Shown here in pieces: positions 50,963 to 57,895 of a stretch of 64,000 nucleotides of DNA. Below the pieces are notes generated by a model. That model was given only the letters and a program-made list of their open reading frames with translations, was not told the DNA's origin and searched no databases. Position numbers and translations under genes: made by a program. How positions within the stretch are numbered: position 1 is the stretch's first letter; every line of letters starts with the position of its first letter. This stretch comes from Acidobacteriota bacterium (lineage in GTDB: Bacteria > Acidobacteriota > UBA6911): NCBI GenBank assembly GCA_012729555.1, contig JAAYCX010000059.1, positions 15,588 through 79,587 on the forward strand, read 5' to 3'.

Positions 50963-52192
50963 CTATTCGTAGCGGAGGGCGTCGATGGGGTCGAGCAGGG
51001 CGGCCTTGCGCGCGGGCCAGACGCCGAAGACCAGGCCGACGGCGATCGACACGCCCAGGCCCGTGAGGACCGCCCACAGGGGAATGGTGGCGGGCAGGCT
51101 CGGCACCAGGGCGACGACGACAAGGCTGATGGCCACCGCGAAGAGGACGCCGAAAATCCCTCCCATACCGGTCAGGGTCATCGCTTCAAACAGGAACTGC
51201 AGCACGATATCGCGTTTTGTGGCGCCGAGGGCCTTGCGCGTGCCGATTTCCCTGGTCCTTTCGGTGACCGACACCAGCATGATGTTCATGACGCCGATCC
51301 CCCCGACCAGCAGGCCGACGCTGGAGACGGCGATGACGACCAGGCCGAAGATGGCGGTGATGGAATTGAGCTGCTTGATGATCATGTCCGGGGTGGTCAG
51401 CGAAAAGTTGCTGGGCTCGGAGTGCCCGACCTTGCGCCGCAGTCGCAGCAGGCTCTCGCTCTCGTCGAGCGCCTGGGTTCTCATGCCGGGACGGGCCTGG
51501 ATGTAGAGGTAATGGTCCTCCTCCCACGGCATGAGCTTGTGGAAGGCGCCGTAGGGGATATAGACGTAGTTGTCCGCCGCCCCGAGCATCGATCCGGTGC
51601 GGCTCTGTTCGGCCACCCCCAGGACCGTGAACGGGCGCCCCAGGATCAGGATCCGCTTCCCTACCGGATCCGTCTCCCCGAAGAGGGATTTGGCGGTCTC
51701 GGGGCCCAGGACCGCGACCGGCATGCGGTGGTCGTCCTCCGCCTGGGTGAAGAAGCGCCCGTTGGCCAGCTTCAGGTCATAGATGTTCGCGTAATTATAG
51801 GAAACGCCCATGAAATCCCCCCCCCGCACCGAGGTCTTCTCGTTGCGGATGGTGATCCGGGTCCTGGTGGGGACTCCGATCCAGCACACGTCCTGGACCG
51901 ACGGGCACTGATCCCGGATGGCCTTGGCGTCGGCCACCGTGAGCGGCCGCCGCATCCTCTCCTCGCGCGTGGGGCGCCCGCTCGGCATCATGTCCCGGTG
52001 GTAGGCCAGGATGTTGTTGGCCCCGAGCGACTCGATTTCCGCAAGGACGTTCTGCTTGACCCCCGAGAGGATCGACGCGATGACGATCACCACCGACACC
52101 CCGACCACGATTCCCAGCACGGTCAGGAAGCTCCTGAATTTGTGGGTGAGGAGGGTGTCGAAAGCCATGCCGAAGGTCTCGCGGTAGTCCAT
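50963..52192 (-). CDS. MacB-like ABC permease (FtsX domain plus periplasmic MacB_PCD-like domain)
   Basis: The N-terminus is LLTHKFRSFLTVLGIVVGVSVVI. The C-terminus is VGGIGVMNIMLVSVTERTREIGTRKALGATKRDIVLQFLFEA. Confidence 0.85.
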   Translation of the reverse strand: MDYRETFGMAFDTLLTHKFRSFLTVLGIVVGVSVVIVIASILSGVKQNVLAEIESLGANNILAYHRDMMPSGRPTREERMRRPLTVADAKAIRDQCPSVQDVCWIGVPTRTRITIRNEKTSVRGGDFMGVSYNYANIYDLKLANGRFFTQAEDDHRMPVAVLGPETAKSLFGETDPVGKRILILGRPFTVLGVAEQSRTGSMLGAADNYVYIPYGAFHKLMPWEEDHYLYIQARPGMRTQALDESESLLRLRRKVGHSEPSNFSLTTPDMIIKQLNSITAIFGLVVIAVSSVGLLVGGIGVMNIMLVSVTERTREIGTRKALGATKRDIVLQFLFEAMTLTGMGGIFGVLFAVAISLVVVALVPSLPATIPLWAVLTGLGVSIAVGLVFGVWPARKAALLDPIDALRYE

Positions 52193-52204
52193 CCTCGCTC
52201 TCTC

Positions 52205-53488
52205 CTATTCCCGGGCCAGGGCGGCGATCGGGCTCAGTTTGGATGCGCGGTACGCCGGGTAGATCCCGGAGATCATCCCCACCCCGCCGGAGGTGAAGAT
52301 GGCGAGCAGGACGTAGCCCGCCGTGATCCGCATCGGGAACCCGACGGCGCCTTCGATGACGGCGCAGAGAACGTAGGCCAGGCCGAGGCCGAGCACGCCT
52401 CCCAGGGTGGCCAGCAGCGCCGATTCCACCAAAAACTGCAGGAGGATGTCGGCGCGCCGGGCGCCGACCGCCTTGCGCATTCCCACCTCGACCGTTCTTT
52501 CCGTCACGGTGACCAGCATGATGTTCATCACCACGATCCCGCCGACCACCAGGCCGACCAGGGTGATGGGGATGATGGCCACCGCGATCATGCCGATGAT
52601 CCCGTCGATGGTTTCCTGGATGGCGCTGCTGGTGAGCATGTCGAAATCGTCCGCCTTCTGCGGCTTCAGCTTGTGCCGAGCCCTCAGGATCATCCGTACC
52701 TCGTCCTCGGTGCCCTGGATGGTCTCCCCCGAGGAGGCCCGGACCTGGAAGGCGATCGACTGGCGGGACCCGTACTTTTTCAGGAAGGCCGTATAGGGGA
52801 TGTAGAGGGAGTTGTCCGCCGACTGTCCTATGCCGCTGCTCCCCTTCTGCTCCTCGACCCCGATCACGCTGAAATTTTCGCCCCCGATCTTGATCTGCTT
52901 GCCCAGCGCGTTCAGGGGCCCGAACAGCTCCTCGCGCACATTCCACCCGATGACGGCGACCGGGCTCGCGTGCGCCACGTCCATCTCCGCGATGAACCGC
53001 CCCTCGTAAAGGTCGACGGCCTGGATTTTGGGAAGATCGGCGCTGATGCCGGAGATCGAGGCGTCATAGAAGATCTTGTTGCCCCTCTTGATGGTGTCGG
53101 TCCCCTGCAGCATGGGAGAAATCGCCTCGCAACCGTCGCACAGGGCCTCCACCGCCTTCATGTCCTCCGGGTACAGGTTCTTGTTGCGCCGGATCTTCTC
53201 CTCGAATTCCTCCATGGAGGCCGCCCGCACGATCCGCGCCACGATGAAGGTGTTGCTGGCGAAGGTGGAGGAGAGCTGTTTCCAGATGTAGTCGCCCACC
53301 CCCTCGATGGCGCCCCCGACGGTCACGACCGAGGCGATCGCGATGATGATGCCGATCAGGGTGAGCACGGACCTCAACTTGTGGGTCCAGATGGAATCGA
53401 CGGCGATCCGGAAGGCTTCCCAGAGCGCGGCGCTCGTGCGCATCTTCCGGGGGTCCGGATCTTTCCCCGTGGGGCGGGCGGTCGGCAT
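52205..53488 (-). CDS. MacB-like ABC permease (paralogue of the downstream gene)
   Basis: The N-terminus is IWTHKLRSVLTLIGIIIAIASVV. The C-terminus is VGGIVVMNIMLVTVTERTVEVGMRKAVGARRADILLQFLVES. An alternative start is at 53443. Confidence 0.85.
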   Translation of the reverse strand: MPTARPTGKDPDPRKMRTSAALWEAFRIAVDSIWTHKLRSVLTLIGIIIAIASVVTVGGAIEGVGDYIWKQLSSTFASNTFIVARIVRAASMEEFEEKIRRNKNLYPEDMKAVEALCDGCEAISPMLQGTDTIKRGNKIFYDASISGISADLPKIQAVDLYEGRFIAEMDVAHASPVAVIGWNVREELFGPLNALGKQIKIGGENFSVIGVEEQKGSSGIGQSADNSLYIPYTAFLKKYGSRQSIAFQVRASSGETIQGTEDEVRMILRARHKLKPQKADDFDMLTSSAIQETIDGIIGMIAVAIIPITLVGLVVGGIVVMNIMLVTVTERTVEVGMRKAVGARRADILLQFLVESALLATLGGVLGLGLAYVLCAVIEGAVGFPMRITAGYVLLAIFTSGGVGMISGIYPAYRASKLSPIAALARE

Positions 53489-53683: not shown

Positions 53684-55144
53684 TCACGGCCCCGGGGGGC
53701 CGGTTTCCTCCGGGACGATCCCGGGCTTGCCGAGGGTGAGCGTGATCGGCTCCATCGCCGCATTCGTTACGATCCCCACCGGTTCGGACTGGGTCCCGGT
53801 TCCGGCCAGGTAGTTTTCGGCGACAAATGCCCGGACCCGGTATTTTCGATCCGCGATCCCCGTTACGGCGAACATCCCGTCGGCACCGGTCTGAAACAGC
53901 TTCTCGGGCTTGTCCGCGACCTTTCCATATTCCACATCCACGATTTCGATCCGGGCTCCCGCCGCGGGTCTGCCCGTGCCGTCGACGACGACGCCCCGGA
54001 TAACGAATGACGGTATTGGCGCAGGCAGGTGGATATCGATGTTCTCCAGCGTTGTCACGTCACGAAGATGCAGGATTTCGGGCCCGCCCGGCGCCGCACT
54101 CGGGTGATGGTAGACGGCGCTATACGGGGAACGCCAGTTCGGCGGCTCGAGGAGCCCCACCCCCACGATGTAGTCCCCCGGCCCCAACCCGTTGAATTCG
54201 TAGCGGCCTTCGTCTTTGGTCCAGACGGAGGCCCCCTCGAAGGCCCCCAGCCCCTTTCCCGCGGAATCGGCGAACACCAGCGAAACCTCGATGTTCGGCT
54301 GGGCCGGCCTCCCCTCCCCGTCGAACAGCTGCCCCCTGATCACTCCGCTGCCCTGAAGCAGAAAAATGGAATCGCTGCCGCAGAGGCCGGGGGGGCGGAT
54401 CTCCACGACATCGACCGGATCCCTTCCCAGGTAGCCGCTGTGCGTGGCCCCGAGGACCGGCCGGACCTCATAGCGGCCGGGCGCGACGGCGAGGATTCGA
54501 AACCCGCCGCTCTCGTCGGTAACGGCCTCATGAACCCTCGCCCCGTCGCGGGCGACGATCTTCACCCCCGGGACGCCGCTCATTTCCCCCTTCGCGAAAA
54601 GCCCTTTCCGCAAATCCCTTTCGACGAGCACCACTTTTCCGAAGATCCTGGACTCGGGTCTGCCGCCAAGCATCGCTTCGACCAGGTCGACGTCGTCCTG
54701 CCCGTCGGGCAACGGCCGGGTACGGGAGCACCCATTGACGGCCAGGTCGTACTTCAGGTCGCCCCCGCGAAATTGGCGCTCATCGTCGGGGCCGACAGCG
54801 CCGGCGTAAACGATGTATCGCCGGCCTTCCTCAAAGTGGTAGCCGCAGCTGCTGAAAACGAAGGAGCCCACGTCTGCGGTTTGCCGCCCCGCGGGGATCC
54901 CCTTGAAGCTCCGTTCCACGCTGAAATGGGCGAGCATGTCGGTCAGGACTTCTTCCGTCTTGCCGCGTCGCTCTACGGTCGCCCTGGTCACCTCGATCGA
55001 CCTCACGCTCCCGACGAAGACCGCGGCCGCCTGCTCCAGGCCGGAACAGGGGGACGATCCAGCCAGACAGGTGCAGGCCATGGCGTCGTTGACGGCAAAA
55101 CAGGATGCCAGGGCGGCACAGATCAGCAACGGTATCGCCCGCAT
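53684..55144 (-). CDS. secreted protein: TIMP/NTR-like N-terminal module followed by three CarboxypepD_reg-like beta-sandwich repeats
   Basis: ORF 53684..55231. The start is ATG 55144 with a GGGAGGAA ribosome-binding site. The signal peptide MRAIPLLICAALASCFAVNDAMA has an AxA cleavage site, so the mature N-terminus is CTCLAGSSPCSGLEQAAAVFVGSV. Later landmarks are SSCGYHFEEGRRYIVYAGA and LAVNGCS. Three repeats follow, of the type GVIRGQLFDGEGRPAQP...DEGRYEFNGLGPGDYIV. Confidence 0.7.
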   Translation of the reverse strand: MRAIPLLICAALASCFAVNDAMACTCLAGSSPCSGLEQAAAVFVGSVRSIEVTRATVERRGKTEEVLTDMLAHFSVERSFKGIPAGRQTADVGSFVFSSCGYHFEEGRRYIVYAGAVGPDDERQFRGGDLKYDLAVNGCSRTRPLPDGQDDVDLVEAMLGGRPESRIFGKVVLVERDLRKGLFAKGEMSGVPGVKIVARDGARVHEAVTDESGGFRILAVAPGRYEVRPVLGATHSGYLGRDPVDVVEIRPPGLCGSDSIFLLQGSGVIRGQLFDGEGRPAQPNIEVSLVFADSAGKGLGAFEGASVWTKDEGRYEFNGLGPGDYIVGVGLLEPPNWRSPYSAVYHHPSAAPGGPEILHLRDVTTLENIDIHLPAPIPSFVIRGVVVDGTGRPAAGARIEIVDVEYGKVADKPEKLFQTGADGMFAVTGIADRKYRVRAFVAENYLAGTGTQSEPVGIVTNAAMEPITLTLGKPGIVPEETGPPGP

Positions 55145-55482
55145 GGAATTCCTCCCGGCCATGATCCTCGGTTTTCGGATGAGCCGCTGACCACGGGGCC
55201 GCGTACCTCGGCCCAGGTTTCCCCGAATCATTCGCAGGACATCCGGTTCCGGTCCATTCCGACCCTGGGCCCAAGCCGGCAGAGGTCCGTCACCTGCGAT
55301 TTCCCCGAATGCCAGACAGATGGATCAGGGTCAATTTTTCATCAATGGAGCGGAAAAAGCAATATCCCATTCCCTAAGGAGGTCGTGGGCGGGGGATGGG
55401 CCGTGCGGGCGGATTCCCGGCTCCATTCCAGGGATCCCGGCCGGGAGGAGATGCGAGCGGAAAGTCCGGCGATAAATATTTC

Positions 55483-55520
55483 TTGACATGATTCGATACA
55501 AGTACTATTCGTTAGTACTA
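55483..55520 (+). promoter_or_regulatory. promoter and operator region of the BlaI-family repressor gene
   Basis: A perfect -35 TTGACA (55483..55488) is followed by 17 nt and a weak -10 TATTCG (55506..55511). Two palindromic AGTACTA boxes lie at 55501..55507 and 55514..55520. There is no Shine-Dalgarno before ATG 55520. Confidence 0.35.
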
Positions 55521-55906
55521 TGAGACCGCAAACAACGCATCTTACCGTGCCGCAACTGGAAATCATGAAGGAGGTATGGCGCCTGGAGGAGGCTACGGTG
55601 CGCGACGTCTATGAGGCACTGCGCACGAAGCGTTCGATCGCCTATACCACCGTCATGACGATGATGAAAACCATGGAGGCGCGTGGACACCTGCGCAAAC
55701 GGGTGGAAGGACGCGCTTTTGTCTACCAGGCGGTGGAACCCCAAAGCAGCGCGCTCCGCCGCATCGTCGGAGACTTTCTGGACAAGGTGTTCAACGGCGC
55801 CGCCGAGCCCCTGCTCGCCCATCTCGTGCAGGAACGCAGGCTGTCGCAAAAAGACCTGGATAAGGTCGCCAGGATGATTCGCAGCAAGAACGACCCCGCG
55901 CAGTAA
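55520..55906 (+). CDS. BlaI/MecI/CopY-family winged-helix transcriptional repressor
   Basis: LTVPQLEIMKEVWRLEEATVRDVYEAL...IAYTTVMTMMKTMEARGHLKRV-type pattern, at the typical ~128 aa length. Confidence 0.85.
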   Translation: MRPQTTHLTVPQLEIMKEVWRLEEATVRDVYEALRTKRSIAYTTVMTMMKTMEARGHLRKRVEGRAFVYQAVEPQSSALRRIVGDFLDKVFNGAAEPLLAHLVQERRLSQKDLDKVARMIRSKNDPAQ

Positions 55907-55942
55907 CCGGCGGCCGCTGCCGGCAGCGTGAAGGAGGACGCC

Positions 55943-57895
55943 GTGGCCTTACCTGTCTGGTTACAGAACCTGATCGCATTCAGTCTGCAGCTGGCCGTGC
56001 TGGCTTCGGTCGGCACGCTGCTTCTCTACCTGTTCCGCCTGCGCGTGCCGCGCGTCGCGCTCCTGTATTGGCAGGGCCTGCTGCTCGTGTGCCTGCTGCT
56101 TCCCTGTTTGCAGCCCTGGGAGCATCCCCGGATACTTCCTGGCCCGCCCGCGCTCCTGGCCGCAGAGGTCGCCGGCGAGGCGGTGGCTGAAATCGCGACA
56201 GGCGAAGCATCGCCTCCGCCAAAGCCCATCCCATGGAAGTACGTCCCCCAGATTCTCGGAGGCGGCATCCTCCTGCGCTTTTTGTGGCTCTTCATCGGAT
56301 TCCTGCGCCTGGGCCGGTTCAGGCGGAAATCCCGGGCATTTGGCGATGGTCGTCCCGCCATCGAGGACATGCAGCGGCGCACGGGAGTGCGGGCGGCGGT
56401 GCTCCTCTCCCCGGCCGTCCATGGTCCGGTGACTTTCGGGTGGCGGTCCCCCACCGTGATCCTGCCTTTATCGTTCAGAAGTCTGAGCGAACCGTGCAAA
56501 CGCGCGGTTCTCTGCCATGAATTGATTCATGTGCGTCGCGGCGACTGGATCGCGATCCTGGCCGAAGAGAGCATTCGTTCGCTCCTCTGGTTCCATCCGG
56601 CCGTCTGGTGGCTGTTGGGCCGGATTCGGCTGAGCCGGGAACAGGTGGTCGATCAGGAAGTGGTGCGGTTGATGGGGGACAAACAACCTTATTTGGATTC
56701 ACTGCTGGAATTCGCGCGGACGCACCGGCGTCTCCAGGCGGCTCCGGCACCGCTTTTCCTGAGCGAGCGCCATCTCGTACAACGCGTGGCGCTGCTGTTG
56801 AGGGAGGTTTCCATGAATCGGACCCGTCTTGCTTTCAGCATGATCGGAATTTCCACACTGATGCTTGCCACGCTCCATTTTGCCGCGGGATCCTTCCCCC
56901 TGACCGGCGCTCCCGCCCTTCGGCAGGAACCGATTCTCGCACAGGCGCCGGAACCGGCGTCGGAGCCAGGGCGCGCGGATTCCCCTGCGCCGGATCGTCC
57001 CCAGGTTGCGGAGTTGCAGGCCCCGCCGGTCGTCGCGACGGCGGCGGTTGCAGCCGTGGCGCAGACGCCCGGAACCGAAATCGAGGCGCCCCGCGGCAAT
57101 CCCATTCGCGTCGGCGGCAATGTCCAGGAGTCGCGCCTGATCCATCGAGTCATCCCCGAATACCCGGCCCTGGCGAGGAAGACGCGCGTCACGGGTACCG
57201 TCAGGCTCGTGGTTACGATCAACGAAGAAGGGTGGGTGTGGGATATCGAGGTGGCGGAAGGGCATCCGTTGCTGGTGGACTCGGCCGTCGCTGCAGTGAG
57301 GCAATGGCAATATCATCCCACCCTGCTCAACGGCGTTCCCGTCCCCGTGATCGCGCAGGTGGACGTCACCTATAACCTGCGGAATCCCGAAGATCTTATG
57401 GTGTCCATGGCCAGGTCCGGAGACCTGAATCCAGAGCCGGACGAAATCGTGCAGACGCCGGGCACAGTGTATCTTGCTGTGGAGCAGGGAACCCCCTATG
57501 ACGTGGCACAGGAAGCGGTGCGCGCTCTCATCGACAGGGGGATTCGGCGGCTGCAGTTATCGGGCGGGCCCTATTTCCTCTTTCGGGGAAAACTCTATCT
57601 TTCGGGGCCGGTGGATCGCGCGGTGAATCCCCTCTCCCGGGATGCGATCATGGACGCTTTCGGATCGGTCCTGGCGGCCGGGGAGGGGAACCCGATCAGG
57701 ATCAATTACCGAATTTTCATCAATGAAGCCGGAACCGTGGACGGGATGGAGCAATTGGGCGGGGATGCCTACCCGGAATTCGAGGATGCCGTCCTGCGCG
57801 CCCGGGTCGAGCCGGCGCTGCTCAACGGCAGCCCGGTCCCCTATGCCAGGACCCTGACCCGTTACTCCGTCGCCTCCGGGGCCGGCCCGCGCTAA
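55943..57895 (+). CDS. BlaR1-like M56 metallopeptidase sensor fused to TonB C-terminal-like domains
   Basis: ORF 55928..57895. I prefer GTG 55943, 5 nt after AAGGAGG. The N-terminal TM helices are followed by the zinc motif HELIHVRRGDW (HELIH at 56516..56530). The TonB_C-like module is RVIPEYPALARKTRVTGTVRLVVTINEEGWVWDIEVAEGHPLLVDSAVAAVRQWQYHPTLLNGVPVPV. A second, weaker copy sits at the extreme C-terminus. Confidence 0.8.
   Translation: MALPVWLQNLIAFSLQLAVLASVGTLLLYLFRLRVPRVALLYWQGLLLVCLLLPCLQPWEHPRILPGPPALLAAEVAGEAVAEIATGEASPPPKPIPWKYVPQILGGGILLRFLWLFIGFLRLGRFRRKSRAFGDGRPAIEDMQRRTGVRAAVLLSPAVHGPVTFGWRSPTVILPLSFRSLSEPCKRAVLCHELIHVRRGDWIAILAEESIRSLLWFHPAVWWLLGRIRLSREQVVDQEVVRLMGDKQPYLDSLLEFARTHRRLQAAPAPLFLSERHLVQRVALLLREVSMNRTRLAFSMIGISTLMLATLHFAAGSFPLTGAPALRQEPILAQAPEPASEPGRADSPAPDRPQVAELQAPPVVATAAVAAVAQTPGTEIEAPRGNPIRVGGNVQESRLIHRVIPEYPALARKTRVTGTVRLVVTINEEGWVWDIEVAEGHPLLVDSAVAAVRQWQYHPTLLNGVPVPVIAQVDVTYNLRNPEDLMVSMARSGDLNPEPDEIVQTPGTVYLAVEQGTPYDVAQEAVRALIDRGIRRLQLSGGPYFLFRGKLYLSGPVDRAVNPLSRDAIMDAFGSVLAAGEGNPIRINYRIFINEAGTVDGMEQLGGDAYPEFEDAVLRARVEPALLNGSPVPYARTLTRYSVASGAGPR

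Follow-up and report, generated by a model that had tools for sequence, protein, structure and literature searches.

A secreted Acidobacteriota protein with a TIMP-like N-terminal domain and a predicted Cys-Thr-Cys mature N-terminus

The window analysed here is a stretch of 64,000 nucleotides from an Acidobacteriota bacterium (assembly GCA_012729555.1, contig JAAYCX010000059.1, positions 15,588 to 79,587), and all coordinates below are positions within it. Its minus strand carries a gene for a 486-amino-acid (aa) protein whose N-terminal domain (N-domain) has an OB fold of the type found in tissue inhibitors of metalloproteinases (TIMPs) and netrin-like (NTR) modules. We are highly confident that this domain is a homologue of TIMP N-domains at the level of sequence profiles. 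The open reading frame (ORF) spans 53684-55231 (-) with its start codon at ATG 55144, and the same product and start were called in four independent public assemblies. The protein begins with MRAIPLLICAALASCFAVNDAMA followed by CTCLAGSSPC, so that the mature chain would start CTCLAGSSPCSG. An earlier reading of this DNA, made without database searches (the sequence-only reading), had quoted the N-domain motifs SSCGYHFEEGRRYIVYAGA and NGCSRTRPL, both of which are in the protein, and had placed three CarboxypepD_reg repeats behind the N-domain. Pfam confirmed these repeats, with PF13620 matching three stretches at about residues 180-445 (70.6 bits against a threshold of 32.3, E 1.5e-19).

Likeness of the N-terminal domain to TIMPs

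Searched as a single sequence, the N-domain of the window protein matched nothing in NCBIfam or directly in the PDB, and a word-indexed homologue search returned one relative only. An exhaustive HMMER search with a two-sequence profile returned 3347 cluster representatives at E<=1e-3, of which 457 reached E<=1e-10, with the match starting at protein residue ~24-30 in nearly all of the best 150 matches. A family profile was built from an alignment of 60 N-domains and compared with all PDB sequences. The top two matches were both TIMP-2 (2tmp_A, E 0.02; 1br9_A, E 0.039), with profile positions 1-105 aligned to TIMP-2 1-103 and with C1, C3, the CG motif and the fourth Cys in register. Alignment of the same profile to TIMP-2 residues 1-103 using hhalign gave a probability of 93.1% (E 3e-7) in the same register. 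When the 60 members were scanned singly against 24,736 Pfam models, 20 matched the TIMP family PF00965 at E<=0.01 (best 5.9e-6), and the only other Pfam family matched was represented by one stray match.

The structural comparison pointed in the same direction. AlphaFold without an alignment gave an unusable model (predicted local distance difference test score, pLDDT, 40). With 122 sequences, the N-domain together with the first beta-sandwich was modelled at pLDDT 87 and a predicted template modelling score (pTM) of 0.81. Foldseek comparison of this model with the PDB returned TIMP-2 in first (1br9, E 4e-6) and second place (2e2d_C), followed by TIMP-1 (7s7m_B) and N-TIMP-3 (3cki_B, template modelling score, TM, 0.61 on the target). 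Non-TIMP modules of the same fold, namely agrin NtA (1jc7, 1pxu) and the PCOLCE NTR domain (1uap), were matched at TM 0.52-0.58, and the remaining matches, to pilin, SdrD and CnaB-type domains, were to the second domain. The TIMP/NTR likeness proposed in the sequence-only reading is supported by profile homology and by the fold, an OB-type beta-barrel flanked by helices, with TIMP-2 at the top and other TIMPs and NTR domains below it.

The mature N-terminus and the cysteine pattern

In TIMPs the first cysteine follows directly on the signal peptide. The predicted 23-residue signal peptide of the window protein ends in A-M-A and is followed directly by Cys-Thr-Cys, the cleavage site having been placed by the -3/-1 rule and by comparison with homologues. 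The A-x-A site that had been noticed immediately before Cys-Thr-Cys is present in the sequence, and the homologues share this arrangement. Cys-x-Cys (CxC) stands at the start of the domain in 125 of 152 family sequences, with its first cysteine (Cys1) at median residue 26. Among 121 sequences, the residue at -3 from Cys1 is A, V, S, T, I or G in 119 and the residue at -1 is A, G or S in 120; position -2 is variable and often D, E, R or K, and Leu occupies -3 in only one sequence. Position 2, the x of CxC, is Ser in 78 and Thr in 18 of these sequences (96/121 together), and is Thr in the window protein. About 98% of the CxC members checked, which come from many phyla, have a site of A-x-A type immediately before Cys1. 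Because the flanking residues are small or aliphatic at -3 and often charged at -2, the pattern is that of signal peptidase I (SPase I) and not of a lipobox. Cys24 would be the first residue of the mature chain and would carry a free alpha-amino group.

The five N-domain cysteines, whose spacing the sequence-only reading had likened to that of TIMPs, are well conserved among homologues, at 93% for C1, 86% for C3, 97% for C10, 99% for C77 and 88% for C116 (mature numbering). C1, C3, C77 and C116 are all present in 117 of 139 aligned sequences. C3 and C116 are jointly missing in 12 and C1 and C77 jointly missing in two; the remaining eight comprise three N-terminally truncated ORFs and five sequences with the N-terminal Cys outside the aligned segment. 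In the profile alignments, C77 and C116 are in register with TIMP-2 C72 and C101. The paired losses of C1 with C77 and of C3 with C116 suggest that the disulfides connect as in TIMPs (C1-C70 and C3-C99 of TIMP-1), and the window protein would accordingly form the equivalent disulfides Cys24-Cys100 and Cys26-Cys139.

The pairing of C10 appears to follow another route. A sixth Cys lies 70-90 residues beyond the N-domain, inside the first CarboxypepD_reg domain (Cys255 in the window protein), and no Cys is found at the end of the N-domain, where the TIMP C13-C124 disulfide would close. The sixth Cys and C10 occur together in 104 sequences; three sequences lack both, and one has only one of the two. 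Since the two are present or absent together, we infer an interdomain disulfide, Cys33-Cys255, that would replace TIMP C13-C124. A fixed arrangement of the two domains is also in keeping with the high pTM of their joint model.

A subgroup of the family (P0001-P0004, P0006, P0009, P0014, P0016, P0031, P0042, P0073 and P0124) has one N-terminal Cys in the motif '...A-S-C-P', often with lipobox-like LAS or FAS before the Cys, and lacks both C3 and C116. Its members may be lipidated at the equivalent of TIMP Cys1, in which case alpha-amino zinc chelation would be blocked.

Family distribution, proposed function and rival readings

The distribution of the family was scanned with a degenerate DNA motif for CGY.F..G..Y[LIV]VYA, using one genome per species. 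This returned at least 120 loci, and 119 of 120 encode true family members as judged by hidden Markov model. The module recurs in Acidobacteriota, where the sequence-only reading had suggested a survey, and also in many other phyla. Among the matches listed, the acidobacterial hosts include Pyrinomonadaceae, Bryobacterales, Terriglobia, Vicinamibacterales and Paludibaculum, the Myxococcota hosts Cystobacter fuscus, Polyangiaceae and Sandaracinaceae, and the Bacillota hosts Paenibacillus, Lysinibacillus, Brevibacillus and Cohnella. Chloroflexota, Cyanobacteria (Mastigocoleus, Microcoleus), Bacteroidota, Planctomycetota, Verrucomicrobiota and others are also represented among them. In the same set, acidobacterial members mostly have the architecture of the window protein, with C10 present and a tail of ~290-310 aa, and most non-acidobacterial members have a single domain, a length of 150-190 aa and exactly four cysteines. 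The 64-kb window holds a single copy, no second family member having been found in it.

Several single-domain members have, by eye, a hydrophobic stretch at the C-terminus with basic residues behind it (L028, L031, L043, L071 and L084, from Paenibacillus, Brevibacillus, a planctomycete, a Micrarchaeota metagenome-assembled genome (MAG) labelled archaeal, and Lysinibacillus). This stretch looks like a membrane anchor, by which the TIMP-like head would be presented at the surface of the cell. Single-domain cyanobacterial and Paenibacillus relatives exceed the Pfam TIMP cut-off (25.0 and 27.1 bits against 23.1) and are covered by no NCBIfam model; some relatives have weak matches to PF01759. Several relatives carry precomputed PF00965 matches and a few are auto-named "TIMP" in databases (one by the Joint Genome Institute, JGI); a Paenibacillus apiarius protein is called "Tissue inhibitor of metalloproteinase" in UniRef and hypothetical at NCBI. 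The TIMP similarity is already in the automatic database labels of a minority of the family, and hence is not unseen.

Conserved partner genes were sought in 119 listed loci by phmmer with the BlaI, M56, TonB_C and MacB proteins of the window, by all-against-all clustering of neighbouring ORFs, and by scans for HExxHxxGxxH and HExxH. Relatives of the BlaI, M56, TonB_C and MacB proteins were each found by phmmer in two to three of these loci, giving no conserved partner; BlaI/M56 relatives lay near family members in two (L027 and L061) and MacB-type permeases in two. Clustering revealed lineage-local synteny only. The contexts of four relatives (P0062, P0215, P0205 and P0005) had nothing in common with the window and contained no BlaI/M56. 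The motif scans returned one real metzincin neighbour (L023) and two M56 genes. The former is a metzincin-type gene in a Pseudobdellovibrionaceae MAG (L023 5454-7999; HEMGHNLGLRH, >629 aa) that lies 192 bp from the family member, and the two are possibly a natural inhibitor-protease pair. In the context of P0062, a single case, the gene directly upstream of the family member (L005 7174-7803) has GldB_lipo and DUF2268 domains, the latter annotated as a predicted zinc-dependent protease.

By analogy with TIMPs, we lean towards a metalloprotease inhibitor function for the window protein, which we regard as somewhat more probable than not. The protein would be exported by Sec and cut by SPase I past Ala23, leaving a mature chain that starts with Cys-Thr-Cys. 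Cys24-Cys100 and Cys26-Cys139 would fasten the start of the mature chain to the SSCGY loop and the core, Cys33-Cys255 would tie the head to the first of the three CarboxypepD_reg domains, and these beta-sandwich repeats would serve as a stalk or attachment module. The rigid, disulfide-stapled ridge formed by CTCL and the SSCGY loop could then enter the catalytic cleft of a zinc metalloprotease, with the free alpha-amino and carbonyl groups of Cys1 chelating the zinc and Thr2 pointing into the S1' pocket. Because no cognate protease gene is linked, we favour a stand-alone periplasmic or extracellular inhibitor, which would target the metalloproteases of the cell itself or of its competitors in the manner of ecotin or bacterial alpha-2-macroglobulin.

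Several observations weigh against this reading. Residues 24-165 of the window protein have no Pfam match, TIMP included, even when scanned alone at E<=10, so that the comparison with Pfam TIMP suggested in the sequence-only reading gives matches for 20 of the 60 family members but not for the window protein itself. The match of the family profile to PDB sequences is marginal when taken alone (E 0.02). The alignment of cysteines with TIMP proposed in that reading stands for CxC and its two partners and fails for the third Cys: C10 lies ~four residues, about one helical turn, ahead of TIMP Cys13 and is not aligned with it, and its predicted partner is located in another domain, unlike in TIMP. 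The TIMP C-terminal domain with its three further disulfides is not present, and three CarboxypepD_reg domains are found instead. Residues 12-15 read LASC, which resembles a lipobox. The family genes have no regular metalloprotease neighbour, with a metzincin gene next to the family member in one of the 119 loci, and many NTR modules (netrins, complement C345C, PCOLCE and agrin NtA) bind rather than inhibit.

The last point leads to the main rival, in which a TIMP/NTR fold on a CarboxypepD_reg stalk binds a polymer, an envelope component or a protein and inhibits nothing. It would fit the Foldseek matches to the agrin and PCOLCE modules, the lack of a conserved protease partner nearby, and the Firmicute, planctomycete and archaeal relatives with an anchor-like C-terminus, as a surface receptor might have. 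The TIMP-like protein of Listeria, which acts on the cell wall and for which inhibition was not demonstrated, also favours it (PMC8235301). However, the best sequence and fold matches are TIMPs and not other NTR modules, and Ser/Thr at position 2 and both partners of the N-terminal disulfides are conserved. The domain also sits at the extreme N-terminus with Cys1 right past the cleavage site in nearly all CxC members checked. Among NTR homologues, none but TIMPs is known to require this strict position, which argues against a binding module, and we consider that reading unlikely. In another alternative, signal peptidase II (SPase II) would cut at Cys15 of LASC, leaving Cys-Thr-Cys internal (mature residues 10-12) and without alpha-amino zinc chelation. 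LASC does match the lipobox pattern, with Arg at position 2 of the protein, and the family includes a subgroup with '...LASC' or 'FASC' immediately before a single N-terminal Cys. Against this, a cut at Cys15 would imply a signal peptide of 14 residues with a hydrophobic core of only ~9, LASC is absent from the closest homologue P0005 (which has AVIAGFAVTDADA directly before CMC), and the residues at -3 and -2 in the 121 homologues follow the SPase I pattern. The lipoprotein reading was rejected on these residue statistics, and we regard it as improbable. Marginally less probable again is a free-thiol site, in which Cys-x-Cys on an OB-fold scaffold would bind a metal such as Cu(I) or Zn or serve in redox chemistry. 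CxC is a frequent ligand of soft metals, and an ATP-binding cassette (ABC) transporter ATPase lies near single-domain members of several phyla in seven of the 119 loci (L040, L048, L060, L084, L101, L109 and L130). Yet the loss of C1 or of C3 goes with the loss of one particular distant cysteine (C77 or C116), as expected of disulfides and not of a metal site, these partners fit the TIMP connectivity, and the protein would be exported into an oxidising compartment.

The least probable of the rivals gives the protein a role in the neighbouring BlaI/M56 system, whose M56 protease it would inhibit or to whose regulon it would belong. A gene for a BlaI-type repressor (55520-55906) and then one for an M56+TonB_C protein (55928-57895) are transcribed divergently on the plus strand, across an intergenic region of 375 bp that contains the perfect palindrome AGTACTA-N5-TAGTACT (55501-55519). 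The palindrome ends one base ahead of the BlaI ATG (55520) and 350 bp from the start of the TIMP-like gene, and is plausibly the autoregulatory operator of the blaI-M56 operon. The sequence-only reading named the M56 neighbour as context. A functional meaning for it is not supported: such a system is near family members in only two of the 119 loci and in none of the four other contexts. Given the topology of BlaR1, its zinc site does not lie on the periplasmic side and would therefore be out of reach for a periplasmic inhibitor. If, as we assume, such systems are abundant in Acidobacteriota, at ~30 M56-type systems per 6-Mb genome, chance alone would place one within a few kb of ~4% of genes. 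The observed frequency (2 of about 55) is close to this rough, assumed chance estimate, and the adjacency is best read as coincidence. The M56 (BlaR1-like) protein itself has a TonB_C domain (residues 410-484) in place of the penicillin-binding sensor domain, and L061 encodes a relative with the same M56 + TonB_C arrangement. Fusions of M56 with TonB_C, like CarboxypepD_reg repeats, are probably frequent in Acidobacteriota.

Genomic context and comparison with known systems

The features of the TIMP-like gene are collected in Table 1. Directly downstream on the same strand, after a gap of 195 bp, lie two tandem MacB_PCD+FtsX permease genes (427 and 409 aa; 50963-53488, -), with no ABC ATPase adjoining among the neighbouring genes listed. 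A gene for a 2026-aa bacterial alpha-2-macroglobulin (MG2, A2M, bMG10) begins at ~58700 (+) and runs beyond 64000, past the window end. It is 3.5 kb from the TIMP-like gene, placing two unrelated genes of protease-inhibitor type close together.

Table 1. Coordinates of the TIMP-like gene and its predicted features in the window.
Feature	Position	Strand	Basis or remark
Complete gene: signal peptide, TIMP/NTR-like N-domain, three CarboxypepD_reg beta-sandwich domains	53684..55144	-	486 codons + stop
Shine-Dalgarno GGGAGG, 6-nt spacer to ATG 55144	55151..55156	-	Direct reading
Signal peptide, residues 1-23 (MRAIPLLICAALASCFAVNDAMA), predicted SPase I cut past A-M-A	55076..55144	-	Sequence and homologues
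TIMP/NTR-like OB-fold domain, precursor residues 24 to ~165	54650..55075	-	Profile and model; approximate boundaries
Cys24-Thr25-Cys26 codons (mature residues 1-3), proposed zinc-chelating N-terminus and S1' residue	55067..55075	-	Family conservation
Cys33 (mature C10), 97% conserved, predicted partner Cys255	55046..55048	-	Conservation and covariation
Cys100 (mature C77, SSCGY), 99% conserved, predicted partner Cys24 (~TIMP C1-C70/72)	54845..54847	-	
Cys139 (mature C116, NGCSRTRPL), 88% conserved, predicted partner Cys26 (~TIMP C3-C99/101)	54728..54730	-	
Cys255 (PPGLCGSD) in first CarboxypepD_reg domain, predicted interdomain partner of Cys33	54380..54382	-	Covariation
Three CarboxypepD_reg / transthyretin-like beta-sandwich domains, approximate boundaries	53735..54649	-	PF13620; first one also in AlphaFold model

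Tentatively, the family may be a large and ancient bacterial group of true TIMP-type inhibitors with the animal-like zinc-chelating wedge at an N-terminal Cys. Its acidobacterial members would be multi-domain proteins, and those of Bacillota, Cyanobacteria, Chloroflexota, Myxococcota and other phyla would have one domain and, in many cases, what looks like a membrane anchor. If so, TIMPs would not have originated in metazoans, the TIMP/NTR module of animals may go back to a bacterial one, and soil bacteria would use the family as a stand-alone defence against, or as regulators of, secreted zinc proteases. The hallmarks at stake are a Cys1 that becomes N-terminal when the signal peptide is removed, a Ser or Thr directly behind it and two stapling disulfides. 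A widespread bacterial family with these hallmarks would reopen the origin of TIMP/NTR modules, and the few known kinds of bacterial protein that inhibit metalloproteases would be joined by another. It would also supply small disulfide-stabilised scaffolds, producible in bacteria, for the engineering of protease inhibitors.

The window protein shares with metazoan TIMPs (MEROPS I35, PF00965) the OB/NTR fold, a predicted mature Cys-(Ser/Thr)-Cys directly behind the signal peptide, a 'CGY' motif that TIMP-1 also has, and predicted equivalents of C1-C70 and C3-C99. It differs in that it scores under the Pfam threshold, is encoded by a bacterium and has a putative inhibitor role. In addition, the third disulfide of its family would lead to the neighbouring beta-sandwich and not to the end of the N-domain, and three CarboxypepD_reg domains stand in place of the TIMP C-domain. 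The non-inhibitory NTR modules (agrin NtA, PCOLCE, and netrin/complement C345C; PF01759) resemble it in fold (TM 0.52-0.58). Those of netrin, complement and PCOLCE occupy internal or C-terminal positions, and NtA of agrin stands at the N-terminus but does not have Cys1 as its first mature residue. In contrast to these modules without a free Cys1, the N-terminal position and CxC are the most conserved properties of the window family.

In the literature, searched mostly without subscription journals, no experimental or comparative study of the window family was found, and the only bacterial TIMP-like protein encountered was Tim of Listeria monocytogenes (PMC8235301). The TIMP family is described as metazoan, with an origin tied to the extracellular matrix (PMC9409782), and a term search of a TIMP review (PMC4860685) met with no discussion of bacterial homologues. 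Tim is an exported lipoprotein processed by SPase II (lipobox LTAC), is TIMP-like in predicted structure only, and is always paired with a metzincin (Mtz), which removes ~50 of its N-terminal residues; it acts on the cell wall (PMC8235301). The authors did not demonstrate inhibition and found no earlier record of bacterial TIMP-like proteins (PMC8235301). The statement in the sequence-only reading that no bacterial TIMP-type inhibitor had been characterised is nearly right, with one TIMP-like lipoprotein having been studied and not shown to be an inhibitor (PMC8235301). Like Tim, the window protein is a bacterial protein, predicted to be exported, with a predicted TIMP-like structure. Compared with Tim by its description, the window family has TIMP sequence similarity and an SPase I-type site before Cys1, and a metzincin neighbour in one of the 119 loci.

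The serralysin inhibitors AprI/Inh are bacterial periplasmic inhibitors of metzincins, as also cited in the Listeria study (PMC8235301). They differ from the window family in having an unrelated eight-stranded beta-barrel, no N-terminal Cys and a gene within the protease operon. In AprI/Inh (MEROPS I38), which occur in Pseudomonas, Serratia and Erwinia, the N-terminal residues enter the cleft and the N-terminus coordinates the catalytic zinc, and exact cleavage of the signal peptide therefore matters for them. Bacterial alpha-2-macroglobulin and ecotin are likewise stand-alone periplasmic protease inhibitors with no linked cognate protease, and they differ in fold and mechanism (a trapping thioester cage and a serine-protease inhibitor, respectively). 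Set beside these systems, the window protein is a bacterial TIMP-fold protein with a probably re-routed third disulfide and a putative CarboxypepD_reg stalk.

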